From NCBI GenBank assembly GCA_965222605.1, contig OZ244960.1, positions 128,001 through 192,000 on the forward strand: a stretch of DNA of 64,000 nt. The letters are read 5' to 3'. The notes under the pieces are model-generated. The model was not told the origin of the DNA. It saw only the letters and a program-made list of their open reading frames with translations, and searched no databases. Below, in pieces: positions 21,623-37,326 of the stretch; within the stretch, counting starts at the first letter, position 1, and each line of letters begins with the position of its first letter. This stretch comes from Candidatus Latescibacterota bacterium (GTDB lineage Bacteria; Latescibacterota; UBA2968). The position numbers and the translations under genes were made by a program.

Positions 21623-23606
21623 AGCGATGTACCCAATGTCCACGTTCTGAGAACCAAATCATGTCAATACCCACTGACAAAGCCACACCGAGAATATATC
21701 CGACCAGCAAACCGATGAACAGGGGCCTGGATTTGCGATAAATCGTTGGGCCCCCCACTTTTATGATGACAAACTTAATCAACCACGCCAGAAAAGTTGT
21801 AAAACTGGTGCGACGGACCAGATAAGAACCCGAAATCGCCAGCCCCACGGGATGCAGAGGCCACCACGCAAAGCGATAGCGCATATAGATCAACCCAGCC
21901 ATCAGCAGACCGCCAATGCCAAAAAATGCCGCTTGTTCGGGATGTTCCTCATAAAATGGTGGCTTGTCGGGGTCTTTAATCACGTTAACCGTCCCCTGGA
22001 AGTGGCGTTCGGCTGCTCGCGTAATCTCCCAACTGTTGAAATTATAAGCCCCCTGATCGTACCCCAACCACACGGTGAACAGCATATTGAACAGCAAACT
22101 GACCATAAACACCAGCCCAATAGCACCCATCAGCCGCCGCCGCTGATTGCCGGGAACGCCCTCGGAGACGCGCCCTGCATGGGCAAGCGCGGGCAAAAAC
22201 AACCCCTTAAAATGCCCGGTAATCAAACCCGAATAGCGGTAAGCGACATGGGTGGCAAGCGGGATATTGCGCCGTCCAAAAAACGGTGCAACCATACTCC
22301 AGGCACCTATGGGCGTATTGGTAAATGGCATGCCAGTATCGGCGAGGATCTTCGCCATACCCGTATAGACAAAAACCACGGAGAGAAGGAGTAAAAATCC
22401 TTGCAATGGATCGAAATTCATCTGCGTCAGCCAGATAAACAAATACGCCATACTGCACAGCAAACCGATGCAAGCAGCGCGATAAGACATCAATTCCTCG
22501 GAGTCATCCACCGTTGGATCTCTTCCAAGTGCCTTCATCAACACATCGCGCAAATGTCTTCTCGCTACCCAGAATGTCGAACCCACAAAAACAATAAATG
22601 CCCCTGCAATCTGCCAGTAATAAACCCCCGTGCGATAATAAGGCGTGGTGGCTCTATAGCCCCACTTGCTGAGCTGACCGCCCTCAAAGATGAACAACAA
22701 ATCAAAAAACCAGATTGAAAACAGAACATCCAGGCTGGCAAAATAAGAAAAAAGAATGGTAAAAATGCCAAAGTATCCCCTGATAGGCGGCATTTGCCAA
22801 TCAATCCAGTACCAGCGCGACCGGTAAATGGGAAAACGCGGAAAGCCCGGCACAAAGTAATTGATACAATTCCAGGCCAGCACACCAAAAGCAATGGCAA
22901 ATCCGATCCAGAATAAGCGATTGCGCGTAAACTCGGGCAACCAACCCTCGCCATCGCCCGGTTCAGAAACAATATCGATCAACGGCGCCATCGCGGGAAA
23001 AACCAGGCGTTCGTTTTGCACCCACTGTTTTCTCAAAACCGTAGCGACACAGGCCAGCATCAAAAAAGCCGCCGCCACAACCGTCGTCCACCAGAACAAG
23101 GGCAATATCCACACGTCCCATGGAATCTCTGCACCGCTCGGCAAGCCTTCGTAAAACCACGCAACGGCATTGCCCTCGTGGCTCGGCAAGAGCCAATTGG
23201 GCAAAAGCGGATGCAAATGCTCAGCCCACTGATTTTCTTCCGTAGCAAAATAATAAGGTGCCGTGATATAGCCGATCAAATAACCCGTCAGTCCAAAACA
23301 CGGCAGTGCCGCGCCCACAAGGCCCATCGCCAGAATCGCATGCCATTCACCTGGTGAGAGCGCCCAGCCGGTCGCCCTGGCAATAATGGCGAGTCCGATC
23401 ATCAAAATCATCAACACGATCAGCATGGCCATTGGGATATGGCTATACGTCATCAGCGGAGCGTGCAAGACGTAGCGCACAAAAATAGCCAGCAGATCGA
23501 GGGCGACGACGAGAAATAGCCCCAATCCCACAGCGCGCAATGTTACCGCGGGTTGTGAACTCGCATCATCTGCTTCTGTCTGAATATTTTGTGTATCAAG
23601 GGCCAT
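21615..23606 (-). CDS. DUF6785/DUF6784-type multi-pass membrane protein
   Basis: LRKQW.Q.ERL.FP, WWPLHP.G, W..K..I.K.GG...YR...P.F.GL. Confidence 0.75.
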   Translation of the reverse strand: MALDTQNIQTEADDASSQPAVTLRAVGLGLFLVVALDLLAIFVRYVLHAPLMTYSHIPMAMLIVLMILMIGLAIIARATGWALSPGEWHAILAMGLVGAALPCFGLTGYLIGYITAPYYFATEENQWAEHLHPLLPNWLLPSHEGNAVAWFYEGLPSGAEIPWDVWILPLFWWTTVVAAAFLMLACVATVLRKQWVQNERLVFPAMAPLIDIVSEPGDGEGWLPEFTRNRLFWIGFAIAFGVLAWNCINYFVPGFPRFPIYRSRWYWIDWQMPPIRGYFGIFTILFSYFASLDVLFSIWFFDLLFIFEGGQLSKWGYRATTPYYRTGVYYWQIAGAFIVFVGSTFWVARRHLRDVLMKALGRDPTVDDSEELMSYRAACIGLLCSMAYLFIWLTQMNFDPLQGFLLLLSVVFVYTGMAKILADTGMPFTNTPIGAWSMVAPFFGRRNIPLATHVAYRYSGLITGHFKGLFLPALAHAGRVSEGVPGNQRRRLMGAIGLVFMVSLLFNMLFTVWLGYDQGAYNFNSWEITRAAERHFQGTVNVIKDPDKPPFYEEHPEQAAFFGIGGLLMAGLIYMRYRFAWWPLHPVGLAISGSYLVRRTSFTTFLAWLIKFVIIKVGGPTIYRKSRPLFIGLLVGYILGVALSVGIDMIWFSERGHWVHRYG

Positions 23607-23731
23607 GGGCGTGATTTTCGTGATACAAGATCAAATCCCTTAGAAAATGTGCGGGAATAATTAACCCTTGCCCTCTGCATTTGTCAAATGGTTTATCTGA
23701 TTCATGGAGGGAAAAAACATGTGCAAGAACC

Positions 23732-23760
23732 TTGACACCAATCATCTGTTTTGTTAGATT
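23732..23760 (+). promoter_or_regulatory. sigma70-type promoter of tRNA-Phe
   Basis: TTGACA-17 bp-TAGATT with an extended TG, 25 bp before the tRNA. Confidence 0.7.
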
Positions 23761-23785
23761 TTCTGACCTTATCGGAAAATATGAT

Positions 23786-23861
<76 letters not shown>

Positions 23862-23915
23862 TTTTTTTCGTTGACCATACACAGACGTAGATTTGCTTGC
23901 AAAGTTCCCAAATAT

Positions 23916-23954
23916 AAAAGAGGGTGTGAACACTGAAAGTTCACGCCCTCTTTG
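23916..23954. terminator. Bidirectional terminator between the tRNA and the FGE gene
   Basis: AAAAGAGGGTGTGAAC-N7-GTTCACGCCCTCTTTT. Confidence 0.8.
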
Positions 23955-23983
23955 TTTTATAGTTATTAAAAAAATCGAAAAAG

Positions 23984-24772
23984 CTATAAACTTTGAGCAA
24001 CCCGAAACCCCACATAAAGGCTCCCGGCAAAGGTCCTGTGTTGGTCGCGAACAGCCGAGCGCTGGAAAAATCCTTCCAGGTACCATGCACCGCCGCGCAC
24101 CACGCGCGCAGTAGAGTCGCCGACCTCCCACGCAGATCCGTCATTGGGTGCGCCCACATATCTATTATTATAGCAATCCTGAGTCCATTCCCACACGTTG
24201 CCGTGCATATCGTAAAGCCCCCAACCATTGGCCTCGAACGATCCCACAGGTGCTGACATCTCATTATCCCACTGACTGCCGCACCCATTGCAATTGGCGC
24301 GGTTGCGACCAAGATTATTTCCCCAGCTATACCTCGTCACTGTTCCCGCGCGCGCCGCATACTCCCACTCTGCCTCGCTCGGCAAACGATAGTTTTTCCC
24401 TGTCTGCTCCGATAGCCATTCCGTGTACGCCACCGCATCATCCCATGTGATATTAATCACGGGACGCCGCCCCCGGCCAAAACCTCTGTCGTCTGCTCGC
24501 TCGCGCCCCGTCGCATCCGTGAAGAGATCGTACTCCTCAAACATCACTTCATATTTCGACAGCGCGAACGACTCAATCGTCACCTCGTGTACTGGTCTCT
24601 CGGCGTTAGTGCAACCTCTCCCCGACACACAGCCCATCTTAAAACGCCCCGCAGGAATCACCACCATCTCTGGCGGCTTAAAAGAAGCCACACTCTCCTG
24701 TGAAACTTGAGCGGATGTACCCGTAAATCCCAATAAGATTACAACGAAAACACTCCTGATAACTCTCCTCAT
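23984..24772 (-). CDS. Secreted FGE-sulfatase (SUMF1/C-type-lectin fold) domain protein
   Basis: Signal peptide; MV.IPAG.F.MG, RLPSEAEWEYAARAG, GLYDMHGNVWEW, RV.RGG.W, GFR. Confidence 0.9.
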   Translation of the reverse strand: MRRVIRSVFVVILLGFTGTSAQVSQESVASFKPPEMVVIPAGRFKMGCVSGRGCTNAERPVHEVTIESFALSKYEVMFEEYDLFTDATGRERADDRGFGRGRRPVINITWDDAVAYTEWLSEQTGKNYRLPSEAEWEYAARAGTVTRYSWGNNLGRNRANCNGCGSQWDNEMSAPVGSFEANGWGLYDMHGNVWEWTQDCYNNRYVGAPNDGSAWEVGDSTARVVRGGAWYLEGFFQRSAVRDQHRTFAGSLYVGFRVAQSL

Positions 24773-24856
24773 GATATATCTCCTGTCATTAAAGGCTCAT
24801 CACAATTAAGACATTAAAAAAATAAGACAACTTCTTATGGATGAGAAACATATTTT

Positions 24857-25585
24857 TCACCTTCCAATGGTCACATTGACCAGGGCACCGGGTCTGACAT
24901 GCTTTCCCGCATTCAAAAAAAGACCTGTTACTTTGCACGTCCCATTTTCTGGATCAATAACAGGACTGATCCCGACAATGCGCCCGGGCAGCGCGCGCTT
25001 TCCGCCGGCGGTTGGCACGGCAGACAGCGGCATATTCTTATGGATCGCGTTCAGCCTGTCCTCGGGCACAAACAGATGCACCTGAAGATTCATGGGGTCG
25101 ATGACCCGCGCGACCGCGGTGTAAGCCAGTACCCAGTCGCCAGGCTTTACATTGACCTCGACCACCATCCCGTCCTGGGGTGCAATGATTGCGGTTCTGT
25201 CCAGTTCCATGCGCGCGGTGACCCAGTTGCAGTGCGCGACCTCGGCATCGAAGCGGACATTTTCAAGCTGCTGGTCACTGATCAGCTTCTTATCGTGCAA
25301 CATTTCCAATCGCGCTTGCAGGGTCTGAGCCTTCTTCAGTGCAATTCGGGCCGCAGCTTCCTTCACACGCAGATCTCGGCGGGTTAATACCATGAGGGTA
25401 TCCCCTTTGACCACCCGGTCTCCCACCTGGAAGTTGACCTGCTGCATCCGCGCGTTCATCCCGGCATAGACAGTCGCCGATCGCGCAGATACTAAAGGTG
25501 CCCTCAATATCAGTTCTTGTGCATTGACCCTTGCGGCAATGAGCATGAAGAACAGACCGCATAGAAACATCGCGTTGTATATCAT
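24857..25585 (-). CDS. RND/HlyD-type membrane fusion (periplasmic adaptor) protein
   Basis: Lipoyl halves VGDRV.KGD.L and I.AP.DG.V....V.PG, alpha-hairpin, ISPVIDP..GT..V, RPG; 4-bp overlap with the upstream gene. Confidence 0.85.
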   Translation of the reverse strand: MIYNAMFLCGLFFMLIAARVNAQELILRAPLVSARSATVYAGMNARMQQVNFQVGDRVVKGDTLMVLTRRDLRVKEAAARIALKKAQTLQARLEMLHDKKLISDQQLENVRFDAEVAHCNWVTARMELDRTAIIAPQDGMVVEVNVKPGDWVLAYTAVARVIDPMNLQVHLFVPEDRLNAIHKNMPLSAVPTAGGKRALPGRIVGISPVIDPENGTCKVTGLFLNAGKHVRPGALVNVTIGR

Positions 25586-26775
25586 AGTTGGTCTCCTATT
25601 AGACGGATACGTAACACACCCCTGAATCGCACGTTTTTGCGTTTCAGGGCCTCGATCTCTTTCTGCTTTTCCGCCAGTTCTCTCTCTATTTGCCTCAGTT
25701 TCAGGTAATGAACGGGCGGATGCGCCATTTTTAAGTCCTCTATTTTTTCATAAAGCCCTTGCTCTACCCCTGATAAATCTTTTATGCGTTGTGAGAGGCC
25801 TCTAAAAATGGGCTGGAACCGCAAAATCTCCTCTTTCTGGGCAAATTTGAATTCAAACGCCCGGGTGGTGAAACTGACAGCACCGCCCTGGCGGTCTTCT
25901 TCCTCAACTTCAAAAGAAGCATCTGCCTCGAGCAGTCCAGATACAAAACTGTTTTTCGGGATCCGCTTTATCAGTTCCCGATAGGTCTCGTCTTTCAACC
26001 GGATCGTCTGTATTCTCACGGGGCGATCAGTTTCCTCCACGCGCACCTTATCCGGCAAAATGGCACCGTGTTCTCCGCAAGTCAGAACCCGCCCATCGAA
26101 AAAGATCCAGAACCAGGCGGGCCTGGCATCGAGGATCAGAGCTTTTCCACGCACCCTTTCGCGCGTGTGTCGCCATTGTCCTTCAAAATTCAAATAGGTT
26201 TCTGTATTGGCTCCCCGATAATCTGAGTATGCGGCCGAAGGCGTAGCCATCAGGTATCTAAATGATCGCCAGATACCGCCCATGTTCGATATGGGCATGA
26301 ACGCCAGGAGCAGTATTACAACCACGGCCAATACAGTACCCTCCCCCATGAGGGATCCGGTTTTGACCCTGTACCTCGCACTGCCGGGGAAAACGCAAAC
26401 CGCGGGATGGGGATAAAACAAGGGCACGCCGCTTTTGGTCGCACAATCGGCGATTAGATGGCTCATATAGCCTAATAGTATGGCTGCATAACACGCAGAT
26501 TGATAGGCGAGTAAAGGCAGAGTGACAACCGATAGGGCGAGCATACAGAGCAGCGAATGGGTAATTGAGCGGTGCCCCCATCGCCGCTCGATCGGGATGG
26601 AAGCAAGGGGCATCATCCGACCAATAGAACTTCTCGGCGAATCCACATCTGGAAGCAGGCTCCCTATGATCGCGCATGCGACCGCGGGAAGATTGCGGTG
26701 AATGGACATGGAAAAGAGCGAGAAGGAACTCGCCACAGTGAGCAGCCCAAATGCAATGTGTGTCGGTGCAGTCAT
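25582..26775 (-). CDS. YdjM-like inner-membrane metal-dependent hydrolase with a soluble C-terminal extension
   Basis: M..PTH, GSLLPD.D...S..G, GHRSITHS, GY.SHL.AD..T.SGV.L.YP; coiled-coil C-terminus; ATGA overlaps on both sides. Confidence 0.85.
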   Translation of the reverse strand: MTAPTHIAFGLLTVASSFSLFSMSIHRNLPAVACAIIGSLLPDVDSPRSSIGRMMPLASIPIERRWGHRSITHSLLCMLALSVVTLPLLAYQSACYAAILLGYMSHLIADCATKSGVPLFYPHPAVCVFPGSARYRVKTGSLMGEGTVLAVVVILLLAFMPISNMGGIWRSFRYLMATPSAAYSDYRGANTETYLNFEGQWRHTRERVRGKALILDARPAWFWIFFDGRVLTCGEHGAILPDKVRVEETDRPVRIQTIRLKDETYRELIKRIPKNSFVSGLLEADASFEVEEEDRQGGAVSFTTRAFEFKFAQKEEILRFQPIFRGLSQRIKDLSGVEQGLYEKIEDLKMAHPPVHYLKLRQIERELAEKQKEIEALKRKNVRFRGVLRIRLIGDQL

Positions 26776-28304
26776 CGTTTGAACCTGTACATAAAGAATC
26801 GAATGCCTACCAGAAGCGCGCTGCCGATACCAGCCAGCACATAGCCTTCCATACTCCCGATGCCGCGCATGAAGAAGCGCGCTGCGACCACGGCCAGCAG
26901 AAGCAGCACCACGGCGAACGTAAGATCGATCTGGTTTCGCGCGCCCGTGTGCAACACATCTCGCACCACGGATCGCGTCACGGCCGGTTCTTTGCGAAGC
27001 CGTTCCACAATCTCAATGATGGCGCGCGGATTCCCAGCACTCTGTTGCAAGATGTTCGTCTCCGTCATTCGGTAGTCTTCTATATTGGCGCCAGTAGTAC
27101 ACTGGCGGATGAGTTTTTTCGCGTCCGCGGTAGATAGGTACTCTATTTCTACGCGGTCGAACTTCCAGAAGTGTTTCTCGTGTGGCTTCCTGACTTCTGG
27201 CAGGGCCGCGATAATGGTAAACTTGCGGTTGAGTTTATCGATCAATCGCCCGACGGAGGCGGTCATATCCGCCAGATCATCAACGATTAACACGAACTCG
27301 TTTTCCTCCACTGAGCCGAGCACCATATCTGTCCAGCCCTGAATGGTCGTGCGGGTGTGTTGCTTTTTGATCCTTTCAAATTTGTCCGGACCAGCCGGAC
27401 ATAGCCTTCCTATTTTATGAAGCTCCTTCGCAATATTTATCAGGGCCTCTTTCGCCGGCGTCAGCGTCTTCACCTTGAGCACATTTTCTGCGTTGAGCAA
27501 CGCGAGCAAATGACTTTTGCCCACGCCGATCGGGCCGATCAATAGTGTGTCAATGCCCTTGCTCAAGTTGTCTTTGAGCTGGCGCAATTCCTCATCGCGG
27601 CCTACGGTCTGCTGCATCCCGATGCGTGTGTGCTTTCTCGGCCACGCGAAGAATCTGTAATTGCGATTCTTCTGGCGCGACCACCACCGCGACCACCGCG
27701 ACCTGCGATCGATGCGATCAACAGAACGCCGCTTTTGCTCGGCACTTACAGAAATGTAGATGGACGACGTCTCAAGGGACGCATGCCCCATCAGGTCTTT
27801 GATGCGCTCGACCGGCACATCCCGATCTGCCAGGTCAGTGCCGAAGGTGTGCCTGAGCATGTGTGGATGGACGTGGCGGATCCCCGCGCGCTGGGCGTAG
27901 GTCTTCATGGACGCCCACACGGTCTTGCGGCTGAGACGCTGCCCATTGCGGAGGTTGCAAAAGACATATTCGGAATCTGAAAAATGACGGGACTCCAGCC
28001 ACTCGCGGAGGACGTCCTGCACCTCGAGGTTCATCGGTACAACCCGCTCTTTGCCGCGCTTATCCGTAAAGCGAAGGCTCGGTGTGCCCGTTGACCAGTC
28101 AATGTTGTCAATCGTGAGCGAACACGCTTCGGATACGCGCAGACCACACATCGAGAGAACGGCAATCAGCGCGCGATCGCGCGGGTTCATGCGTACGGAT
28201 TTGAGCGCTTCAAGCTCGTCTTGCGCGAGAGCTTTAGGGAGCTTCTGTGATGGGACTTTACGGGATGGTACTGCTGGACGGGTTGTGGGTGACTGGTGAA
28301 CCAT
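26772..28304 (-). CDS. Tyrosine recombinase catalytic domain fused to a P-loop ATPase and two C-terminal TM helices
   Basis: Intact R-K-HxxR-H-Y residues (GLRVSE, DKRGK, HMLRH, MGH, SIY); Walker A GPIGVGKS; Walker B LIVDDL; GNPR; hydrophobic tail. Strong SD AGGAGG. Confidence 0.85.
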   Translation of the reverse strand: MVHQSPTTRPAVPSRKVPSQKLPKALAQDELEALKSVRMNPRDRALIAVLSMCGLRVSEACSLTIDNIDWSTGTPSLRFTDKRGKERVVPMNLEVQDVLREWLESRHFSDSEYVFCNLRNGQRLSRKTVWASMKTYAQRAGIRHVHPHMLRHTFGTDLADRDVPVERIKDLMGHASLETSSIYISVSAEQKRRSVDRIDRRSRWSRWWSRQKNRNYRFFAWPRKHTRIGMQQTVGRDEELRQLKDNLSKGIDTLLIGPIGVGKSHLLALLNAENVLKVKTLTPAKEALINIAKELHKIGRLCPAGPDKFERIKKQHTRTTIQGWTDMVLGSVEENEFVLIVDDLADMTASVGRLIDKLNRKFTIIAALPEVRKPHEKHFWKFDRVEIEYLSTADAKKLIRQCTTGANIEDYRMTETNILQQSAGNPRAIIEIVERLRKEPAVTRSVVRDVLHTGARNQIDLTFAVVLLLLAVVAARFFMRGIGSMEGYVLAGIGSALLVGIRFFMYRFKR

Positions 28305-28363
28305 GAGAAACGCCTCCTGTATGGGTTGGAATTGAAAATTTTGATCTCGTGCCCTTCATATAG

Positions 28364-28379
28364 TGCAAGAACCGTGCCA
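28364..28379 (-). promoter_or_regulatory. sigma54 (-24/-12) promoter of the recombinase-ATPase operon
   Basis: Minus strand TGGCACGGTTCTTGCA matches TGGCAC-N5-TTGCA exactly, about 60 bp before the ATG. Confidence 0.85.
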
Positions 28380-28454
28380 AAATTTTCAAAAATGCCGTAA
28401 CTGCTTGCAGGAGAGCGTGTTTTTAAAAAATGCCGGAAAAATGGCCTGTGGGGA

Positions 28455-28537
28455 ACTGTGTCAAATGACACAGTAGGTGTTTCAAATGAAACAGTAAGTG
28501 TGTCATATGACACAGTTGGGACTATAATGAAACAGGG
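28455..28537. promoter_or_regulatory. Tandem palindromic enhancer boxes (bEBP UAS, TGT-N10-ACA), 21-bp period
   Basis: ACTGTGTCAAATGACACAGT, GGTGTTTCAAATGAAACAGT, AGTGTGTCATATGACACAGT plus a half site, about 100-160 bp upstream of the predicted TSS. Confidence 0.7.
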
Positions 28538-28560
28538 GGATTACAGAGGGAAATCACACA

Positions 28561-28590
28561 AAAAATGCCCTGAAGAATACAGGGCATTTT
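28561..28590 (-). terminator. Terminator insulating the sigma54 region
   Basis: AAAATGCCCTG-N7-CAGGGCATTTT; also present in repeat copy B. Confidence 0.7.
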
Positions 28591-28663
28591 GAAAGGTATT
28601 TGGAGCATACCATACAACGGGCTGTCATCATCGGTCCTGCGGACATTGTTTGCGTTTTGCCAT

Positions 28664-31171
28664 TCAATTTCCCCTCCCGATCTGTGCTCTGGTCGCCACG
28701 GCTTTTACGGCTTCTATGCCCAGGCGGTCTTCGAGTTGTTTCAAGTACAAACTGCGCGGAGAGACCTTCAGCCCGTGTGATTCCCAATATCCATCTTCGC
28801 GCCTGTACCAGCCGTCTCGTTTCTCGCCGATGCAGCCAATGGCGTAATTCTGAGATGTTGGGGGTTTTTGCACGATAAAGCTCTCTGCTTCGCAGTTCCA
28901 CAATACTTTTTGCGCGCCCGCCCAACCGTGGCCAGTGCCCGAACCTTGCCGATCCTGAACATTGATGGCATTACCGTTCACGGTCACATTGTCAAATAGG
29001 GTGCAAACAGACCACCGGTGATGGGGGCCTGAATCATTATGCGCGATATCCGCCGTGCAATCCAAAAACACATTTGGCCCCGGTACGCGTGCGTGTAGCA
29101 CATAATCGTGACGCCCTCGCCGGGTATAACACCGTTGCACGAGGGACAATTGCCCGTGGATGGGAAATGAATATCGCCGTCCCCCGGTGATCTCTGATAC
29201 GGGGTCGAGACACTGGCTATCCTGCACGGTCATCCATTTCGCGTAACGGCCAATGGTCACACATGCATATCCAAAGTGTACCGAGGTGATATCGCGCGCC
29301 CACGCATTCTGCACGCGTGAAAATACGACAAAGTTCCAGGCGTGATCTTCATCGATAAACTCATCCTCCCTACTTTCATCTTTTTCGCTGACATCAAACT
29401 CCGATACGCCGTGCAAGTTCTCAATGCCGACCTGTTCAATGCGCCCGAGATATTCGTATTTGTAAACCCACCCACCGCCGTATTCTCGTTCAAATGCATT
29501 GCCCATGGGCGCGTCGATTGTTATTCGATTACCATCTATGGCAGTTATGGTGCGGTCAAAGCGAAAGTCGTAAGTGCCCGGTTCCCACTGCCGAACGTCG
29601 GGATGTGACATCTCAATGCGATCCATCCCTATTGCCGCAATCCACTGTGCCGTACTGGGTCGATGCACGATGATGTCATCGCCAACTGCAAAACCCGAAG
29701 CATCTGCGATGGCGAATGTTCTTGTGCCTACGGGGACATAATCATCTACAATGGCCTGTCGCGTTCCCCCTACCTCTCGGGGGCTATCTTCGCCTTCAAA
29801 CTCAATTAATGTGCGCTGTTCTGTTCCCGTTGCAATCAATACCGTGCCGTTTTCACCTTCGCCTTCACCGCGCAGTACAACGCCACTTGCCCGAATCTGC
29901 AGGGTTCCGCCAATGCGATATTTTCCGCGCTTGAGTAACAAGGTCCCCCGAAATCCATTGGCGTCCAGTGCGCGTGCAGATACGTCGTCGATTGCCGCTT
30001 GTAATCGCGCTGTGTCGTCTCCTTCGGCCTGTGGCTGTACCGTCATTGCCACTGGCACATCTGGCAGAGCCACACCACCACCCATATAGCCACAGTGTGA
30101 AAAGTCTGGAATGATATTGCCCTTTTCGTCTGGTACATAGACCAGTCGCCCGTCAGGTCCCGGATATACCAGTTTACTGTTCTGAGGTACGTAAGATATC
30201 GAACTGCTCCGCGTTTGGATAAAATCTGCAACTTGCGCCCAAATTGGGATGGGATATATGGAGGGGTCGCGTGAGGCGATAATATCCCGAGGAATTGGCA
30301 CGCGAATCCGGGTTGTTCCCGCCTCAATCGTCTGTGTCAATAAAATCTGCGTTTCGGTTCCCACCACAATGTTTAATGGTTGTGTGGTGGCGTTTTCCAA
30401 TGTGATGGGTATGTACCACTGCGTGCCGCCAGATCCGAATCCAGCAGCGAAGGTGAGAAAATCACCAAAACCGATTTGTCCGTCAGAATCGAGGTCGCAG
30501 AGGGGATCATATCCCGCATCGGCCTGTGTTGCACCGAATTTCTGAACAAAGAGGATAAAATCACTAAAACCAACGGCTCCGTTGCCATCAAAATCGAGAT
30601 GGTCAATGGAATTTATTTCCTGTACTGGCGCGTCAACTTGCCAGAAAAAGGTCTGATCGACGGTTGCGATATGATCGATGAACAGGCGCGCGTTTGAATT
30701 TTGACTGGTTTCTGTTCTAAATGTGATGTATCGCCTGTTGTAATCGGGTTCTCTGCCCCAGATATCGTGGGGTTTTGCCAGTTCTACAACGGCAAGTTGC
30801 CAGCCCTGAGGCGGTGTTTGTCCCTCCCAGATTGTATATATGGCTTCCCTACCACCGCCCAGAGGGTGGTTGCGAACCTTGATTTTGAGGTCCCTCAGGC
30901 CATTGCCCTCTACTTTCCACCAGAAGCTCAAGCTGTGTCTTTGGGAGATGTCCTGCCCCGTGCTGAAAAAATCGTAGGTAAAGAATCCCGTTTGACCTGC
31001 TGGCAGAGAAGCCGCGATGGCAAAGCGACCCTCCTGGGCATCTTTGGATAACTGGACATTGTTGGACCAACCGGAGAGATTATCGCAATAGGTCAGCGTT
31101 TGCACCGGATCGCTAGCAGAGCAAGGACAGGCCCACAAAAATAGAATTGTGCAGGTGATAATTGGTCGCAT
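28664..31171 (-). CDS. Secreted modular protein: N-terminal beta-sandwich, dockerin/EF-hand-like pair, C-terminal pectin-lyase-like beta-helix
   Basis: Signal peptide MRPIITCTILFLWACPCSA; DFDGNGAVGFSDF...DLDSDGQIGFGDF; IPDFS..GY.GG, DDT..LQAAID, SGVVLRG.G, DSGPHHRWS, GHGWAGA. Confidence 0.75.
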   Translation of the reverse strand: MRPIITCTILFLWACPCSASDPVQTLTYCDNLSGWSNNVQLSKDAQEGRFAIAASLPAGQTGFFTYDFFSTGQDISQRHSLSFWWKVEGNGLRDLKIKVRNHPLGGGREAIYTIWEGQTPPQGWQLAVVELAKPHDIWGREPDYNRRYITFRTETSQNSNARLFIDHIATVDQTFFWQVDAPVQEINSIDHLDFDGNGAVGFSDFILFVQKFGATQADAGYDPLCDLDSDGQIGFGDFLTFAAGFGSGGTQWYIPITLENATTQPLNIVVGTETQILLTQTIEAGTTRIRVPIPRDIIASRDPSIYPIPIWAQVADFIQTRSSSISYVPQNSKLVYPGPDGRLVYVPDEKGNIIPDFSHCGYMGGGVALPDVPVAMTVQPQAEGDDTARLQAAIDDVSARALDANGFRGTLLLKRGKYRIGGTLQIRASGVVLRGEGEGENGTVLIATGTEQRTLIEFEGEDSPREVGGTRQAIVDDYVPVGTRTFAIADASGFAVGDDIIVHRPSTAQWIAAIGMDRIEMSHPDVRQWEPGTYDFRFDRTITAIDGNRITIDAPMGNAFEREYGGGWVYKYEYLGRIEQVGIENLHGVSEFDVSEKDESREDEFIDEDHAWNFVVFSRVQNAWARDITSVHFGYACVTIGRYAKWMTVQDSQCLDPVSEITGGRRYSFPIHGQLSLVQRCYTRRGRHDYVLHARVPGPNVFLDCTADIAHNDSGPHHRWSVCTLFDNVTVNGNAINVQDRQGSGTGHGWAGAQKVLWNCEAESFIVQKPPTSQNYAIGCIGEKRDGWYRREDGYWESHGLKVSPRSLYLKQLEDRLGIEAVKAVATRAQIGRGN

Positions 31172-31209
31172 TGTAATTTTTCCTGACCGCTGACCGCTTG
31201 TTTCTATTC

Positions 31210-32763
31210 TCACGCACAGACAACCTCAAAGGCCGTTATATTGCGGGTATCCTTGCTGAACTCTACCCCGATCAAATATATCGGCTGATCCAGACCCCGA
31301 TATTTGTCCGCGTATCCCTTTTCCTGCAACTGCGCCATCGCCGCGCCTTCAGACGCCAGTTCCACCACCTTGAACTCGAACAGGTAGATGTTATCGTTGA
31401 AGTACACAGCCATATCCACACGCCCATGGCTGCTGTCCTCTACGGTGATGTCAAGCCCCAGTGCTGCGAAATAGGAATAGAACACACTGGCATAGTAGCC
31501 TTCAAAACTGGCGATGTCGTTGTTGGTGTACCATTCGTAGGGGATACTGGCAAAAAAGGCGTGGAATAAGGTCTCGAGACCGGCAAAGTCATTGGCTTTT
31601 AGCAGGCGGTAGAGTTGGAGGCTGTTCGCTATCTGGCCGGACGGGTCTTTCACTAGGTAGCGCAATAGGCTCTCGTTGAGACTTTGACGCACTTCCCGAT
31701 TGGGATAACTTAGACGGTACAGGGACTTGCCGCCGAGGTTCTCCTCACCGGTAATGGTCAGATACCCGGTTTGAAACAACAGAGCCTCGGTCGCAATTTC
31801 ATCCACATCGAAAGTCGATAGCAAATCGCTACTGCCGATCATCTCATCGAGTTTCAAGGAACTGACACGGCGTTGAAACAGGGTCTCAATGAGGAAGGTG
31901 GGGGTACCCGTCTCGAACCAATAGGCTTCGAAGCTATGCCTTCGGAACAGCAGGAGGATATCGAAGGGGTTATAGACCTTCTCCTCGCCCCGCCAGCTAT
32001 AGCCGTTGTACCAGTCGCGGACCTCATCCCGATCCAGGCCGGGCAGTTCAGGCGCAAATACCGTGTCGAGGTCCTCCTCGGTGTAGCCGCAGATGGCGGA
32101 ATATTGTGGATCAATGGTGATGTCTGTAAGATTGTTGAGGCCAGAGAAGAGGCGGACTTTGGAGAACTTGCTGACGCCAGTGAGGAATGTGAATTTGATA
32201 TGGGCATCACTGGACTTGATCGTCGAATACAGACCGCGCAGAAAGTCGCGGTTGGCACGGGCGACTTCAGGCTCATCCAGCACATCTAAGATCGGCTTGT
32301 CGTATTCATCAACAAGAACGACAACGCGCTGTCCCGCCTGGCTATGCAACATCTGGATGATATGGCGAAAGCGTGCTGAAGCAGTATCGTAGTGGCTTTC
32401 TACGCCTGTTTCTTTTTCCACAGCGTCCAGTTGTGCCATAACCTCTTTGTGCAAGATCTCCGGCTCATTAAAATTGCCGCTGCCAAAGTCGAGTCGCAGG
32501 ACGGGATAGCGCACTTGCCAGTCCCAGTGGTCGTGGATATACAACCCCTCAAAGAGCGGCTCATTGCCCTCAAACAGTTCCTTCAGCGTGTCCAGAAACA
32601 GGCTTTTGCCAAAGCGACGCGGACGCGATAAAAAAAAGTGCGTGCCATCGTCGAGCAACTCCCGGATATAGGCTGTCTTATCGACATAGTAGCAGTTCTC
32701 CTCCCGAATTTTGCAGAAGGTCTGAATACCGATGGGCAGTCTGCGTTTGGTCATATTATGCAC
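31210..32763 (-). CDS. AAA-ATPase-like + PD-(D/E)xK nuclease (PDDEXK_9/DUF1703) protein, copy 1
   Basis: LPIGIQTF, YVDKT, SRPRRFGKS, LVDEYDKP, GRVD....FEFK....Q...Y. Confidence 0.9.
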   Translation of the reverse strand: MHNMTKRRLPIGIQTFCKIREENCYYVDKTAYIRELLDDGTHFFLSRPRRFGKSLFLDTLKELFEGNEPLFEGLYIHDHWDWQVRYPVLRLDFGSGNFNEPEILHKEVMAQLDAVEKETGVESHYDTASARFRHIIQMLHSQAGQRVVVLVDEYDKPILDVLDEPEVARANRDFLRGLYSTIKSSDAHIKFTFLTGVSKFSKVRLFSGLNNLTDITIDPQYSAICGYTEEDLDTVFAPELPGLDRDEVRDWYNGYSWRGEEKVYNPFDILLLFRRHSFEAYWFETGTPTFLIETLFQRRVSSLKLDEMIGSSDLLSTFDVDEIATEALLFQTGYLTITGEENLGGKSLYRLSYPNREVRQSLNESLLRYLVKDPSGQIANSLQLYRLLKANDFAGLETLFHAFFASIPYEWYTNNDIASFEGYYASVFYSYFAALGLDITVEDSSHGRVDMAVYFNDNIYLFEFKVVELASEGAAMAQLQEKGYADKYRGLDQPIYLIGVEFSKDTRNITAFEVVCA

Positions 32764-32816
32764 CTTTGTCTTTCCATCTCATCCAAAAGCGATTCTGTGT
32801 TTTTTACCCTCATCGA

Positions 32817-33392
32817 TCACCGTGTCCGCGTTTTTCTCCGCGCGAAGGCATCCAGTTCATGCCGGACGGTCTCACCGGACAGTTCGGCATAGCGCTGGGT
32901 GGTCTGCAAGTTGCGATGACCGAGCAGCCAGCGCACTGTGCCAACACCCACGCCACTGTTCACCAACTCCGTCGCAGCCGTGTGCCGAAGCTGGTGGATC
33001 TCGCATTTGACCTCTGCCTGCTCACACAGCTTCGTCCATTGATAGAGCGCGGTTCTATAACTCATGCGCCGATCTTTGTATTTTCCCGTCCTGAAAAGCG
33101 GCCCCGCGGTTAAATCTTCGGCGCGAAGATACGCCCGCAACAGTTTCAGGCTTTCAAACTCAAAGGGCAACGGGATCTCGCGCTCGTATTCTCCTTTGCC
33201 TCTGAACCGAATGCCCTCCTGCCCAGCACTCAGGATAATGTCCTCAACGTAAATGCTCAGTGCCTCATTGATCCGGATCCCGGTTTCGGCCAGCAGTGTG
33301 AAGAGCAGGCGCTCCCGCGGTTTTGACTTCCGAATCGCCTGCATCAACCGCTCCAGGTTTTTTCTATGGATCGGCCGCGGCAATCCATGCAT
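32817..33392 (-). CDS. Small tyrosine recombinase (catalytic domain only, possibly 5'-truncated)
   Basis: GIRINE, GKG, HQLRH, LGH, TTQRY; no core-binding domain; abuts a YhcG fragment. Confidence 0.8.
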   Translation of the reverse strand: MHGLPRPIHRKNLERLMQAIRKSKPRERLLFTLLAETGIRINEALSIYVEDIILSAGQEGIRFRGKGEYEREIPLPFEFESLKLLRAYLRAEDLTAGPLFRTGKYKDRRMSYRTALYQWTKLCEQAEVKCEIHQLRHTAATELVNSGVGVGTVRWLLGHRNLQTTQRYAELSGETVRHELDAFARRKTRTR

Positions 33393-33409
33393 CTCCCGTG
33401 TTTAACCTG

Positions 33410-33582
33410 ATCGGTTTCGGAGTATTCGTCCTTTAGATCGAGAAATTCGAGCACAAAGGGGTCTTTGATTTCCTCTTCGGAGAGAACGCGGTCTTCAGGC
33501 TGCACCTTCTGGCCTTTGGTTAGCATGGCGGCTTTGTTCTTTGAAAGTGCTGTGCGCTCGTAGAATTGAGAGTTTATCTGCC
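33410..33582 (-). pseudogene. Internal fragment of a YhcG/DUF1016 PD-(D/E)xK protein
   Basis: QINSQFYERTALSKNK...IKDPFVLEFLDL....SE.D. Confidence 0.85.
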
Positions 33583-33619
33583 AGCCGATAGCGGCGCATC
33601 AGGGAAGTACTTTTTTGAG

Positions 33620-33862
33620 CTATTTGTTGAGTACCAAAACAATTGTGATGGCTGTCCCGATATTGGCAAGCAACACAGTGATCAACAAACCAACAATCCA
33701 CTTGAAATTGCTGTCGATTCGATTGGACAACTCACTCCGGCCTTGTTCGATTCGATTGGACAACTCATGCTGGCCTTGCTCAATGTTGCCCAAACGTTCA
33801 TTGATTTGCGCCTGGACGGCTTCGAGAGAAGCAACGCGACTTTCAAGGCTTGGCATCTGCAT
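33620..33862 (-). CDS. Small coiled-coil + single-TM protein (Bdr/DUF1640/XhlA-like architecture)
   Basis: 11-aa repeat (ELSNRIEQG..., 33-bp tandem), then FKWIVGLLITVLL; paralog at 41313-41519. Confidence 0.7.
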   Translation of the reverse strand: MQMPSLESRVASLEAVQAQINERLGNIEQGQHELSNRIEQGRSELSNRIDSNFKWIVGLLITVLLANIGTAITIVLVLNK

Positions 33863-34121
33863 GGTAAAACTCTCTTTGTGTTGAGTTTTTACTGTGTCTA
33901 ATCATAAAATACCTTTGTCATTATGGATATGAAAGTGCTTTTCCGCATGTGCAGATGAAGTGCTGGCGAATTGTACACCTATCAAAGTTGGAGCATCTAA
34001 AGAAAGATAGCCTGAAGTCGTCAAGGCACAAATAGAACGCGTCGAATTTCTTATCAACAGTCGGTCCGATCCAACACCCAACCCAAAATCTTTACGCACT
34101 TCCATCCGCATTTCTCACCTC

Positions 34122-35678: not shown

Positions 35679-35799
35679 CTTTGTCTTTCGATCTCATCCA
35701 AAAGCGGTTCTGTTATTTTTTGTTCTTTCGCATTCATACACTAAGCATTTCCTACTTTTGGCTAAAGATTTCGCCTCCACCGCGCGTTCAGCCGGCACC

Positions 35800-35856
35800 A
35801 CAGTGCTCGAAGACGATCCCAAACGGGCTGAATCGCGTCGAGAATGCCGCGCTCTT
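35800..35856 (-). pseudogene. C-terminal relic of a DUF3368 PIN toxin
   Basis: Right after the UPF0175 stop, one frame reads KERGILDAIQPVWDRLRAL, resembling the DUF3368 tail 'AK.RG.I..V.P.LD.L'. Confidence 0.55.
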
Positions 35857-36125: not shown

Positions 36126-36278
36126 TGCGTCGTGTCTCCATAAACGCGCTGTCAAACCGGGCGAATCGCCCCCCTATGCTTTTTGAATATAATGATAAAT
36201 GTCTATTTGCAATTTACGCGAAAAAACAGGGGTTTGCAATGGCATTTTGGCGTATAATGTAGGCGTTTTGGGAAGTGT

Positions 36279-36306: not shown

Positions 36307-36343
36307 TCTTTTTCTGCCTGGAATCTCGATAAACCGGATATCT

Positions 36344-37257: not shown

Positions 37258-37326
37258 ATAGCGATGGTGCTCGGATGAACACCATTCTGGAAATGTCGCG
37301 GTCATCTAAGACAATCAGTATATATC

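Follow-up and report, generated by a model that had tools for sequence, protein, structure and literature searches.

We identified a three-gene module in a 64,000-nucleotide stretch of a contig from a Candidatus Latescibacterota bacterium (the window; Table 1). A single ORF joins an intact tyrosine recombinase catalytic domain to a P-loop ATPase and two transmembrane helices, as an earlier sequence-only reading had proposed, and is followed by genes for a YdjM-like hydrolase and a periplasmic adaptor. The ATGA coupling that had been read between these genes is found at both junctions (fusion gene to hydrolase and hydrolase to adaptor), and the tRNA-Phe gene placed about 1 kb away is separated from the adaptor gene's end by 996 bp. 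The closeness of this tRNA reflects a variable region rather than a demonstrated integration. Copies of the module occur in differing flanking contexts, and genome G090 has an empty site. The adjacent genes encode no RND, ABC or TolC partner, also in agreement with the first reading. The nearest transporter-like gene (17096-21643), whose product of 1515 aa contains an FtsX permease domain, is ~3.2 kb from the module with two other genes and the tRNA between. The gene for a 663-aa protein, located between the FtsX gene and the module, is missing at module copies L009 and L010.

Table 1. Features of the module, its leader and their surroundings (positions in the window)
Feature	Position	Strand	Remarks
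Fusion gene, 510 aa	26772-28304	minus	Recombinase catalytic domain, basic linker, STAND-like ATPase and two-helix membrane anchor
Tyrosine recombinase catalytic domain, residues 26-188	27741-28229	minus	Xer-like; R56, K85, H148, R151, H174, Y183
Conserved basic linker, residues 189-232	27609-27740	minus	Consensus IDRRSRLxRWxSRQRNRxYRF
STAND-like/AAA+ P-loop NTPase, residues 233-450	26955-27608	minus	With helical lid and small C-terminal helical domain
C-terminal membrane hairpin, residues 455-506	26787-26942	minus	Ends RFKR; hydropathy and AlphaFold
YdjM/DUF457-type membrane metal-dependent hydrolase, 397 aa	25582-26775	minus	PF04307
Hydrolase part of the YdjM protein, residues 1-165	26281-26775	minus	
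HlyD/membrane-fusion-type periplasmic adaptor, 242 aa, short	24857-25585	minus	TIGR01730, HlyD_3, HlyD_D23
tRNA-Phe (GAA)	23786-23861	plus	Marker of strain-variable region
Terminator-like palindromic hairpin	28562-28590	minus	11-nt arms, 7-nt centre, then T run; 5' edge of leader
Three 16-bp TGT-N10-ACA palindromes	28457-28472, 28478-28493, 28499-28514	minus	Starts exactly 21 bp apart
Sigma-54-type promoter TGGCACGGTTCTTGCA	28364-28379	minus	-24 GG, -12 GC; motif match
Ribosome-binding site AGGAGG	28313-28318	minus	8 nt ahead of ATG at 28304; conserved in leaders
Second leader copy	36911-37262	minus	81-86% identical, two palindromes
CPBP (Rce1-like) intramembrane protease gene behind second leader	36344-36982	minus	PF02517, E = 3.2e-8

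The recombinase domain matches the Phage_integrase profile (PF00589) over residues 26-188 (E = 1.5e-40; 139 bits against a cut-off of 27.1), and Xer proteins lead both its profile and its fold matches. The NCBIfam XerA, XerC and XerD models match by their C-terminal halves only (E = 7e-46 to 2e-38; XerD, for example, over positions 97-280 of 290), and Foldseek returns XerH and XerA (E = 5e-9 to 1e-7). Too little sequence lies ahead of residue 26 for a core-binding domain, and at most 31 residues precede the catalytic domain in any of the 72 homologues of at least 480 aa; the recombinase consists of the catalytic domain alone, as first read. Its catalytic residues proved to be conserved as well, with R56, R151 and Y183 present in 73 of 73 sequences, H148 in 72 and H174 in 71. 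The domain thus has the full R-K-H-R-H-Y set, as do the Xer recombinases (XerA, XerC, XerD and XerH) and FimB/FimE. However, no named Xer is its orthologue, since scores are far under the equivalog cut-offs (157 against 220 for XerA). It differs further from Xer and FimB/FimE in being joined to an ATPase and a membrane anchor, in having no demonstrated recombination site, and in the repeated loss of the recombinase domain from modules that otherwise persist. The basic linker that follows contains two helices in the AlphaFold model (residues 188-198 and 203-213).

The ATPase carries a VGRxxE motif (G235, R236) ahead of Walker A (GVGKS, K263) and Walker B (D342, D343), and the Walker residues are near invariant. 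This motif order, together with its P-loop core, its lid and its small helical domain, makes it resemble the STAND NTPases (AAA_16, NB-ARC). However, it remains under the Pfam cut-offs (AAA_16 matches residues 234-349 with 25 bits against 32.6), and clamp-loader AAA+ folds match equally well: the Foldseek matches include the RFC small subunit, NB-ARC proteins, CED-4 and MuB (E = 1e-6 to 2e-5). Plasmid homologues match AAA_16, nSTAND1/5/6 and NB-ARC weakly. The C-terminal repeat or sensor domain of STAND proteins is replaced by the two-helix hairpin, which has hydrophobic segments at residues 455-485 and 487-506 by hydropathy and helices at 462-482 and 485-509 in the AlphaFold model. This anchor, which ties the small ATPase to the inner membrane, is kept in length across 73 sequences, and its topology would leave the ATPase in the cytoplasm. 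With an N-terminal enzymatic domain ahead of the NTPase, the fusion protein has the layout of the bacterial Avs-type immune sensors. The physical coupling of a Xer-like catalytic domain to a membrane-anchored ATPase also recalls XerD, which is activated by the membrane DNA translocase FtsK, by analogy. However, the ATPase described here is of the STAND/AAA+ type rather than an FtsK/HerA-type motor, recombinase and ATPase are in one chain, and there is no link to division or dif.

The hydrolase belongs with YdjM/YbcI (DUF457), as its residues 1-161 match PF04307 above the family cut-off (E = 4.2e-27) and the His and Asp ligands H6, D43, D45, H68, H73, H106 and D110 do not vary across 25 sequences. 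E. coli ydjM is regulated by LexA. The module protein differs in being always paired with the anchored ATPase and in having ~235 more residues (residues 166-397), a beta-rich domain with a coiled-coil hairpin (AlphaFold mean pLDDT 87.3). There is no PDB fold match at E ≤ 0.001 for the protein, and no significant one for the extra domain.

The adaptor passes the subfamily cut-off of TIGR01730 (RND_mfp; 126 bits against 94.9) and has the lipoyl and beta-barrel parts of HlyD/RND membrane-fusion proteins, with a signal-like hydrophobic segment at residues 1-20 by hydropathy. It matches model positions 17-244 of 322 and is therefore a short adaptor. Unlike its relatives, it belongs to a module with no RND, ABC or MFS pump or full TolC, and within the module family it is optional: it is found downstream of the hydrolase gene at nine of the 11 distant loci fetched (not at L150 or L151, the latter of which ends with its contig), is lacking in the genus's second paralogue (L016, L018-L023), and has no annotated counterpart near the ATPase/hydrolase pair on the nine plasmids inspected. 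A Thermus plasmid has a 'TolC family protein' as partner of the pair, and a Flavobacterium plasmid a weak OEP-like one (20.3 bits against a cut-off of 22). HlyD-like, TolC family and OEP-like partners point to transport across the envelope, which speaks against defence.

A fusion of this kind might arise by read-through, misassembly or a chimeric contig, an explanation that found no support and that we regard as excluded for practical purposes. The search for the integrase, ATPase and transmembrane architecture recovered 72 full-length homologues across many assemblies of several origins, conserved and syntenic, which keep the recombinase and Walker residues. The same fusion occurs in complete-chromosome assemblies and on isolate plasmids in RefSeq. 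The recombinase/ATPase junction (~27600-27720) is crossed without differences by contigs in four of four runs from three studies, although one run (X1) may be the window's own sample. The fusion is thus neither unique to this assembly nor stripped of its catalytic residues or synteny, the outcomes that would have undone the sequence-only reading. Residues 1-19 of the fusion protein are a relic of a CPBP protease N-terminus, and a CPBP gene occupies that position in relatives. These chimeric first codons record a natural deletion common to relatives rather than an artefact.

The module is present in 22 of 168 genomes of the phylum and in 15 of the 20 other genomes of the genus; it is missing from the other five although these are 97–99% complete. 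Genomes G150 and G152 have five and six matches, respectively. The ATPase-anchor and YdjM-like genes are adjacent and in that order at all 17 close loci and at nine of 11 distant Latescibacterota loci (tblastn); L150 and L151 give no YdjM match by tblastn, and L151 stops at a contig end. In PLSDB, 12 plasmid records match the ATPase part, among them three from Nitrosococcus and two from Haliscomenobacter, and a 'metal-dependent hydrolase' lies next to the ATPase gene on nine of nine plasmids inspected. The conserved core is the ATPase-anchor/YdjM pair, and the module is an accessory, horizontally moving membrane module found on plasmids and in variable genome regions. The pair also exists unfused, a possibility that the first reading had raised: Bacteroidota plasmids carry it with the recombinase domain, Gammaproteobacteria and Thermus plasmids without it, and an unfused version occurs in the same genus. 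A tree built from the ATPase part requires 11 switches between the fused and unfused states, at least nine of them forced by well-supported branches, and the switches apparently run by loss. In close relatives (L014 and L015) residues 25-228 are deleted in frame at the same chromosomal locus. Since the recombinase is repeatedly lost or absent, the conserved core cannot depend on it and recombination is an add-on. The architecture proposed in the sequence-only reading is thus supported, whereas its self-contained recombination or DNA-transfer device, which makes the dispensable recombinase the centre, is not supported in that form.

Given its carriage by plasmids, the pair might anchor or segregate a plasmid or island at the membrane, with the recombinase resolving multimers or integrating the element and the chromosomal copies being integrated-plasmid remnants. 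The module lies beside replication and ParA genes on small plasmids; at L146 a winged-helix protein and an IstB/DnaC-like ATPase come after it, there is a further integrase gene at L151, and the copy in the window is in a variable region adjoining a tRNA. However, the plasmids carry a ParA of their own, unfused plasmid versions have no recombinase domain at all, and neither partition nor resolution offers an evident task for a membrane hydrolase whose metal ligands are invariant. The chromosomal copies are intact, have conserved regulation, are kept as diverged paralogues and do not look like decaying remnants. We consider maintenance of a mobile element improbable.

In this genus the module is preceded by a leader that is 74–88% identical across paralogues. 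The hairpin at its 5' edge is kept in 16 of 17 aligned leaders (L020 differs), and a genome-wide search allowing two mismatches gave four matches, namely three leader copies and one unrelated site. The TGT-N10-ACA palindromes number six in the whole genome, all within the three leader copies, and leaders in the genus carry one to three. They occur in 16 of 21 genus genomes, exactly the carriers of the ATPase module, and are absent from the other five; a reversed control pattern had no matches in the genus genomes. With the palindromes confined to leaders, no LexA-type regulon was seen in the whole-genome search. The -24/-12 element, named by the sigma-54 consensus, is ~86 bp downstream of the nearest palindrome centre and ~60 bp upstream of the ATG, and its GG and GC columns show no variation among the 17 aligned leaders. 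A sigma-54 motif is also found within ~80-250 bp at each of 15 palindrome-bearing loci from other genomes. The genome encodes rpoN and 18 Sigma54_activat genes. We read the palindromes as putative upstream activator sites for a sigma-54 enhancer-binding protein. Activator genes lie within ~2.5 kb upstream of the module at L146 and L148, and Reg_prop + Y_Y_Y sensor activators, or a hybrid kinase with these domains, are upstream at L146, L148 and L145. The elements first described as dif-like sites are better read as the terminator-like hairpin and activator palindromes of this promoter.

The same leader appears to drive CPBP protease genes. The CPBP protein encoded behind the second leader copy has its first ~17 residues in common with the fusion protein, and at L009 the operon itself contains a full CPBP gene, placed between leader and fusion gene. 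Such an arrangement would suit a module for envelope maintenance, stress or export with no role in genetic conflict. A signal sensed by a dedicated enhancer-binding protein would induce a membrane complex of the ATPase, hydrolase, adaptor and CPBP protease, which would remodel or repair membrane lipids or proteins, or export or process a peptide; the recombinase domain would be a co-opted DNA-binding or regulatory appendage. Envelope-stress and metabolic operons are more typically under sigma-54 and a dedicated activator than defence systems are, and the phased activator sites, the sensor-type activators upstream and the association with CPBP genes all fit. By hydropathy, all products are membrane-bound or periplasmic, and the adaptor and TolC-like partners are parts of export systems. 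However, a housekeeping or stress role is unlikely to be so patchily distributed, carriage on 14-28 kb plasmids in other phyla is not expected, a purely structural appendage would not hold the full catalytic set invariant, and no transporter partner is conserved. On balance we doubt this explanation.

The device of the sequence-only reading can be made concrete as an envelope DNA-processing machine in which the tethered recombinase acts site-specifically. It might recombine the 11-7-11 hairpins of the leaders, so that the gene sets behind these are excised, shuffled or integrated. Alternatively, it might be a recombinase-type relaxase that nicks an oriT-like site and has its own membrane 'coupling' ATPase in the same chain, with the conduit made up of YdjM, HlyD or TolC-like parts. 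The catalytic residues are all kept wherever the domain is present, the hairpin is built arm-spacer-arm like Xer and Cre-type sites, and the three leader copies front different genes. Homology breaks off sharply at ~28601 and 24867, positions that are also loose contig ends in independent samples, and envelope-spanning partner types recur. However, leader and hairpin are equally conserved ahead of modules without a recombinase, and the leader is kept in genomes whose only ATPase copy is unfused (e.g., L016). The hairpin, with its T run and its position upstream of the promoter, resembles an insulating terminator, and the palindromes, phased at 21 bp and 86-128 bp upstream of the sigma-54 element, resemble activator sites. 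The leader copies are only 81–88% identical, no excision or circle junction was seen in contigs, and the domain, with its repeated changes of state, is absent from the gammaproteobacterial and Thermus pairs. In favour of a relaxase, all 12 homologue-bearing plasmid records are typed as non-mobilizable, that is, without a known relaxase, although the records are not independent, given the Nitrosococcus and Haliscomenobacter groups among them. The plasmid typing database is biased against the taxa of these plasmids. Catalytic-domain-only recombinase relatives can also be atypical relaxases: MpsA (SGI1) and TcpM (pCW3) are reported to be recombinase-family proteins that serve DNA transfer rather than recombination, and MpsA works with a separate small protein resembling a core-binding domain (PMC6414798, which cites TcpM). 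The module has no MpsB-like partner, conjugation genes or identified oriT. We judge site-specific DNA processing to be an unlikely function.

A PADLOC scan of ten neighbouring or nearby proteins matched models for five. At L145, NsnA/PD-T4-2_A (E = 2e-64) lies directly downstream of the module; on a Nitrosococcus plasmid, AbiD (E = 3e-61) and a weak PDC-S57 match are next to the pair; and a 14-kb Flavobacterium plasmid carries PDC-S19 (E = 1e-167) and PD-Lambda-4_B. These three contexts are anecdotes rather than a statistical enrichment. Toxin-antitoxin genes are annotated within or adjoining the pair. The five proteins without a PADLOC match include the window's stand-alone recombinase and the CPBP protease, and the window's AAA-ATPase_like/PDDEXK_9 gene and 849-aa protein likewise gave none. 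Two observations speak against defence: a search for phage-borne homologues of the ATPase part found none, and the three module proteins have no PADLOC match other than mad8, by its P-loop only (E = 0.0011).

We tentatively favour an inducible, envelope-based module in conflict with invading DNA of phages or plasmids, i.e., one of defence or exclusion. Transcription would start at the sigma-54-type element and need a dedicated enhancer-binding protein, and the module would therefore be switched on by a signal. The three proteins would form a single envelope complex in which the ATPase, through oligomerisation or a nucleotide-dependent switch, governs two effectors. One would be the YdjM hydrolase, active at the membrane. 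The other, where present, would be the tethered recombinase domain, which may nick or covalently capture DNA arriving at the membrane. A point against this reading is that the repeated loss of this domain shows the core to do its work without DNA cleavage. Such a module would resemble SNIPE and Zorya in logic and not in ancestry. Both are established as membrane-localised, DNA-targeting defence systems (10.1101/2025.11.03.685801; PMC11946911) in which an inner-membrane site is combined with a DNA-acting enzyme, so that position in the envelope selects incoming DNA. However, no components homologous to theirs were detected in the module, which has no PADLOC match of its own.

The architecture had not been recognised from any described system, and our literature search likewise found no published description of the module and no described system that matches it. 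The module is a real, conserved and previously undescribed gene set.

The module in the window is an operon of three genes encoding the fusion protein, a YdjM-type hydrolase and an RND-adaptor-like protein. Every structural point of the sequence-only reading of this region is borne out, namely the open reading frames and their ATGA overlaps, the domains, the membrane anchor and the nearby tRNA-Phe. A scan of positions 23000-38000 against Rfam found tRNA as the sole family.

Table. Positions of the module, its leader and associated features (window positions unless a locus is named)
Feature	Position	Strand	Remark
Fusion gene, 510 aa	26772-28304	minus	ORF; ATGA overlap (4 nt) with next ORF
YdjM-type hydrolase gene, 397 aa	25582-26775	minus	ORF; 4-nt ATGA overlaps on both junctions
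RND-adaptor-like gene, 242 aa	24857-25585	minus	ORF; ATGA overlap with YdjM gene
tRNA-Phe	996 bp beyond operon	opposite to operon	
Sigma-54-type -24 GG / -12 GC element TGGCACGGTTCTTGCA	28379-28364		canonical spacing
Leader copy and CPBP gene	36344-37262		
Leader copy and CPBP gene	L030 (G000:C1:5470187-5470497 and downstream)		5.47 Mb
In-frame deletion allele	L014 6001-6918		window 27621-28232 missing
In-frame deletion allele	L015 5143-6045		window 27621-28232 missing
849-aa gene	28664-31213		
AAA-ATPase_like + PDDEXK_9 gene	31210-32763		first direct copy
AAA-ATPase_like + PDDEXK_9 gene	34122-35678		second direct copy
Stand-alone recombinase gene, 191 aa	32817-33392		
Membrane protein gene, 663 aa	21615-23606		
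Sigma54_activat ORF, 1669 aa	L156 (G000:C1:3972000-3986000) 2402-7411		
Cys-rich ORF, 499 aa	L156 7650-9632		
Empty site	L162 (G090:C2:2848000-2862100) ~12190-13526		
ATPase, TolC family and hydrolase genes	L190 3995-8177		plasmid pTCCB09
181-aa gene	L167 8675-9220		plasmid
YdjM-adaptor ORF	L154 2123-4033		
Genes following the module in genus g28	L146 8216-9681; L148 5335-6576; L154 4030-4866		

The N-terminal part of the fusion protein is a tyrosine recombinase catalytic domain (PF00589, residues 26-188, E 1.5e-40, 139.3 bits against a cut-off of 27.1). R56, K85, H148, R151, H174 and Y183 are all present, residues that we take to be the catalytic Arg, Lys, His-x-x-Arg, His/Trp and the Tyr nucleophile. 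Because Xer profiles align to the protein solely by their C-terminal halves, from model position ~90-106 onward, it has no core-binding (SAM-like) N-terminal domain; 25 residues precede the catalytic domain. Its scores lie below the equivalog cut-offs for XerA (156.9 against 220), XerC (135.8 against 335) and XerD (132.3 against 330). Two longer recombinase-like matches elsewhere in the same genome, in open frames of 308-313 aa, may be the chromosomal Xer genes. In an AlphaFold model of the whole protein (mean pLDDT 79.8) the fold of the N-terminal domain matches XerH and XerA.

A conserved basic linker joins the recombinase domain to a P-loop NTPase. This part carries a VGRxxE motif together with Walker A and Walker B motifs, and in the alignment of the family G235 and R236 do not vary and E239 hardly does. 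A GR-x-x-E motif N-terminal to the P-loop is a mark of STAND NTPases. The fusion protein scores below the AAA_16 cut-off (25 bits against 32.6), and the plasmid homologues of the ATPase reach 32.5 against the same cut-off, with weak nSTAND and NB-ARC matches. The fold matches of the NTPase are divided between NB-ARC and clamp-loader AAA+ proteins, consisting of RFC small subunits, plant NB-ARC proteins, CED-4 and MuB. The model and hydropathy place ~50 residues of small helices after the NTPase and a two-helix membrane hairpin at the extreme C-terminus; a C-terminal sensor or repeat domain typical of STAND NTPases was not found in the fusion protein.

The second protein matches PF04307 over residues 1-161 (95.2 bits against a cut-off of 29). 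Residues H6, D43, D45, H68, H73, H106 and D110 are invariant in 25 sequences and, judging from the annotation of the family, probably bind metal. C-terminal to the family domain, AlphaFold confidently models a beta-rich domain and a coiled-coil hairpin (mean pLDDT 87.3), and a fold search of the PDB with the whole model returned nothing at E <= 0.001. The adaptor is short and passes the TIGR01730 subfamily model (126 bits against a cut-off of 94.9). No cognate RND, ABC or MFS pump and no outer-membrane factor is encoded within the operon, and tblastn searches with the neighbouring proteins of the window revealed no further gene common to module copies at other sites. The only transporter-like gene near the module encodes an FtsX-domain protein and is 3.2 kb off in the window.

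The fusion is genuine and under selection. We identified 234 relatives in a clustered protein collection, and the aligned family reaches down to 26-31% identity with the query. Residues were counted in the 72 sequences of at least 480 aa among the best 113 of these relatives, plus the query. All 73 sequences have R56, R151, Y183 and K263, whereas H148, D342 and D343 are found in 72 and H174 in 71; position 85 is lysine in 56 and arginine in 13. The residues ahead of the catalytic domain (query residue 20) number at most 31 in all 73. The recombinase-ATPase junction is spanned by contigs of four runs from three studies, one run being possibly the source sample. As a lead only, the ESM Atlas holds four clusters of ~500-aa proteins with PF00589 and AAA families, 62-73 members each, commonest in Bacteroidota and Margulisiibacteriota; the window's own fusion protein is not in the Atlas. 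A metagenome scan with generic recombinase motif patterns returned ordinary integrases at 79 of the 80 loci kept, and the remaining locus, L035, is the only family member.

The conserved core is the ATPase-anchor and YdjM pair, not the recombinase. The YdjM gene directly follows the ATPase gene in 17 of 17 close Latescibacterota loci. Seven of the loci (L008-L013 and L007) carry the fused recombinase in the three-gene module, L007 having just the tail of the adaptor gene. In L014 and L015, which represent the same chromosomal locus, residues 25-228 (the recombinase domain and linker) are deleted in frame, leaving a 306-aa protein, and such deletion proteins are reported in several assemblies (P0059, P0066, P0067, P0069 and P0070). 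The pair also exists unfused as a second paralogue in eight loci (L016-L023), where identity is 72-80% for the ATPase and 64-68% for YdjM; it has no recombinase domain and, in all but L017, no adaptor. In distant genera the order ATPase, YdjM, adaptor is kept in 9 of 11 fetched loci, whether or not the recombinase domain is there, and at identities of 30-60%. On a tree of the ATPase-anchor part (115 of 124 rows, nine with fewer than 200 aligned residues having been left out; quick method, midpoint root) the fused or unfused label changes 11 times, at least nine of the changes being forced by well-supported branches; some 'unfused' rows are possibly truncated gene calls, and the L014 and L015 deletions are seen in the DNA itself.

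The pair is also plasmid-borne. Searches by tblastn with the ATPase-anchor part identified 12 plasmid records, and with the ATPase part no homologue in the phage collection. A 'metal-dependent hydrolase' adjoins the ATPase in all nine plasmid records inspected, and it has PF04307 wherever scanned. The recombinase fusion is found on plasmids of Flavobacterium, Spirosoma, Flammeovirga and Haliscomenobacter, and the ATPase without the recombinase on plasmids of Allochromatium, Methylobacter, Nitrosococcus (two) and Thermus. On the Allochromatium plasmid the ATPase is preceded by a gene that is unrelated to the fusion-protein family in a profile comparison (probability 0.2%). A function of the module in maintaining the plasmids themselves seems to us quite improbable.

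On the Thermus plasmid (L190) the annotation places a 'TolC family protein' of 225 aa between the ATPase and a metal-dependent hydrolase of 550 aa. A gene of 181 aa just upstream of the fusion gene on a Flavobacterium plasmid (L167) gives a weak OEP match (20.3 bits, cut-off 22). On these plasmids, partners resembling outer-membrane factors may stand in place of the HlyD-like adaptor. In one distant Latescibacterota locus (L154) the YdjM-like protein and the adaptor form a single continuous in-frame ORF that keeps a hydrophobic segment between them, and the long YdjM-adaptor frames of another such locus (L146) and of homologue P0142 look like frameshift products. The YdjM-adaptor fusions were rejected as a guide to topology, as the YdjM helix count points to the opposite side of the membrane.

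The ATPase part occurs in 22 of the 168 genomes of the phylum and in 15 of the 20 other genomes of the genus, with five matches in G150 and six in G152, both of genus g28. The flanks of the module vary between strains. At the empty site of genome G090 the module and the 849-aa gene are missing, and an internally deleted AAA-ATPase_like/PDDEXK_9 gene abuts a sulfatase-modifying-enzyme gene, followed by tRNA-Phe. Contigs of independent samples have loose ends at the module edges (24867 and 28591-28601).

Several other genes surround the module copies. The window holds two direct copies of an AAA-ATPase_like and PDDEXK_9 gene, with repeat families D1-D3 that are 84-92% identical. Between them is a stand-alone, catalytic-domain-only tyrosine recombinase (PF00589 at residues 9-171) that is ~30% identical to the fused recombinase domain. 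In L015, L019, L021 and L022 the leader has a complete or partial PDDEXK_9 gene directly upstream. The 849-aa gene encodes a secreted-looking protein with a weak EF-hand match only; it is directly upstream of the leader in the window, L172, L173, L175 and L183, upstream with intervening sequence in L012 and L015, and downstream of the CPBP gene in L178. A 663-aa membrane protein with DUF6785 and DUF6784 belongs to a hugely expanded family with 24-35 matches per genome in five genus genomes. In genus g28 a winged-helix protein with weak TrmB and Replic_Relax matches follows the module. At L146 an IstB/DnaC-like ATPase comes after the winged-helix gene, and HigB/HigA-like ORFs (assigned by eye) and a STAS-domain protein lie ahead of the module. 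The module contigs of G150 and G152 are short (5-10 kb), as is common for repeated elements.

A stretch of ~370 bp ahead of the fusion gene is 74-88% conserved in every module copy of the genus, other chromosomal sites included. This leader consists, in order, of a hairpin with 11-nt arms and a 7-nt centre followed by a T run, one to three palindromes, an A/T-rich stretch, the element TGGCACGGTTCTTGCA and a strong ribosome-binding site. The palindromes are 16 bp long (TGT-N10-ACA), with starts exactly 21 bp apart, and lie 86-128 bp upstream of the -24 element. TGGCACGGTTCTTGCA fits the sigma-54 -24/-12 consensus, and its GG and GC columns are invariant across 17 aligned leaders. The -24/-12 pattern has 47 matches genome-wide; base composition predicts 12, the reversed control gives 5, and patterns with other spacings give 12-31. 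The genome encodes rpoN (E 7e-59) and 18 Sigma54_activat genes.

The palindrome is present in 16 of 21 genus genomes, exactly those with the ATPase module, and the other five are without it; a control pattern gave 0 matches. A -24/-12 match is found within about 80-250 bp in 15 of 15 palindrome loci fetched from other genomes. Two distant genomes have an activator gene with Reg_prop, Y_Y_Y, Sigma54_activat and HTH_8 domains upstream of the module, and a third has a hybrid kinase with the same Reg_prop/Y_Y_Y sensor domains in this position. Because ydjM is an SOS gene in E. coli, we considered an SOS/LexA reading of the palindromes. This reading was rejected, as the window's own genome has six palindrome sites, all within the three leader copies and none near repair genes. 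The hairpin was likewise rejected as a dispersed repeat or REP element, being confined to leaders (a genome search allowing two mismatches found the three leader copies and one unrelated site).

The sequence-only reading had proposed dif-like sites for the recombinase. We read these instead as a predicted terminator and activator-binding sites because the leader carries a conserved sigma-54 element and phased palindromes and co-occurs with the module. The 11-7-11 hairpin in each leader copy is formally a candidate recombination site. However, a terminator explains the hairpin equally well, and no recombination junctions were seen in contigs of the samples. Site-specific recombination or DNA transfer is an unlikely role for the module; tyrosine-recombinase-type relaxases such as MpsA (PMC6414798) are a precedent for it.

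Over 28337-28467 the summed contig depth reaches 2-4 times the value of the flanking operon in each of the four runs, which fits a leader present as a multi-copy (repeated) element in these communities. At L156, another locus of the same genome, a sigma-54 promoter with 91% identity to the leader promoter over 33 nt comes after a 1669-aa ORF with a Sigma54_activat domain, and a short ORF and then a Cys-rich ORF lie downstream of it. By eye, this looks like a peptide-modification locus.

The leader is not restricted to the module. The two other copies in the window's own genome each precede a gene for an Rce1-like (CPBP) intramembrane protease, and the copy at 5.47 Mb is itself preceded by a recombinase fragment resembling the stand-alone recombinase. 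In L009, a locus of a close relative, a complete CPBP gene is found between the leader and the fusion gene, and residues 1-19 of the window's fusion protein correspond to the CPBP N-terminus. These residues are what a deletion left behind when this lineage lost CPBP from its operon. In other genomes the leader precedes the adaptor alone, or the adaptor followed by the ATPase and YdjM.

No PADLOC, NCBIfam or Pfam system corresponds to the architecture, and no description of it was found in the literature searched. Among the three module proteins, PADLOC-DB 2.0 gave only a P-loop-local mad8 match (E 0.0011), and none for the hydrolase or the adaptor. PHROGs returned generic integrase and hydrolase families only, and the database names of the proteins are only 'tyrosine-type recombinase/integrase' and 'metal-dependent hydrolase'. 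A literature search by plasmid name found no paper, a further one returned nothing beyond general papers on sponge symbionts, and an apparent DUF457 paper was discarded as the term had matched DUF4579 in a paper on Cap1. Each domain comes from a known superfamily; it is the combination, the obligatory ATPase-YdjM pairing and the membrane-tethered recombinase for which these sources gave no counterpart. We rate the module as an accessory one of the STAND type, unusual in its effector and its anchoring.

The core would act as a membrane-anchored switch that depends on nucleotide and is coupled to a hydrolase embedded in the membrane. An enzyme tethered to the membrane and able to cut DNA, or to capture it covalently, would be in a good position to act on incoming DNA, and a role in genetic conflict is plausible, though at somewhat less than an even chance. 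This role is suggested by the patchy, plasmid-borne, multi-copy and modular distribution, by the STAND-like NTPase and by defence-like neighbours. The latter include NsnA/PD-T4-2_A right after the module at L145, a distant Latescibacterota locus, AbiD beside the Nitrosococcus pair and PDC-S19 on a 14-kb Flavobacterium plasmid; PADLOC models are matched by 5 of 10 neighbouring or nearby proteins scanned, a count to be read as anecdotal. Genes for toxins and antitoxins are also annotated inside or next to the ATPase-YdjM pair. However, no component matches a known defence family and sigma-54 control is unusual for defence. Additionally, the adaptor and the TolC-like and OEP-like partners suggest a conduit across the envelope. 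We regard an envelope-stress or export function for the module as doubtful. Membrane-sited action on incoming DNA is established as a principle by SNIPE (10.1101/2025.11.03.685801) and Zorya (PMC11946911).

We can only tentatively propose, with the chances well against it, that the anchored STAND-like ATPase and YdjM pair is the core of an unrecognised class of envelope-spanning machine. The fused recombinase would then work tethered to the membrane, either as an effector that captures and cleaves DNA entering the cell or as a recombinase-type relaxase fused to its own coupling ATPase. Such machines would be carried by plasmids and genomic islands in at least five phyla (Latescibacterota, Bacteroidota, Pseudomonadota, Deinococcota and Margulisiibacteriota, the last as a lead from the Atlas that concerns just the fused recombinase-ATPase protein). 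In the relaxase case the module would be a minimal non-type-IV device for DNA export or mobilisation on plasmids typed as non-mobilizable.

Tyrosine recombinases are soluble enzymes in textbooks, and in the literature searched we found no description of a conserved family that builds an intact recombinase into a membrane-anchored ATP switch. The same two-gene core occurs on small plasmids of unrelated phyla, hidden under the names 'integrase' and 'metal-dependent hydrolase'. The question of its function is directly testable because natural alleles with and without the recombinase domain exist, as do plasmids of cultured isolates with homologues. Should the module serve in defence or exclusion, it would bring bacterial immunity a new type of effector, namely a recombinase that attaches itself covalently to DNA, and a new way of sensing at the membrane. 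If it moves DNA, the judgement of 'non-mobilizable' plasmids would change. We know of no function for the YdjM/DUF457 family, which would gain its first functional context.
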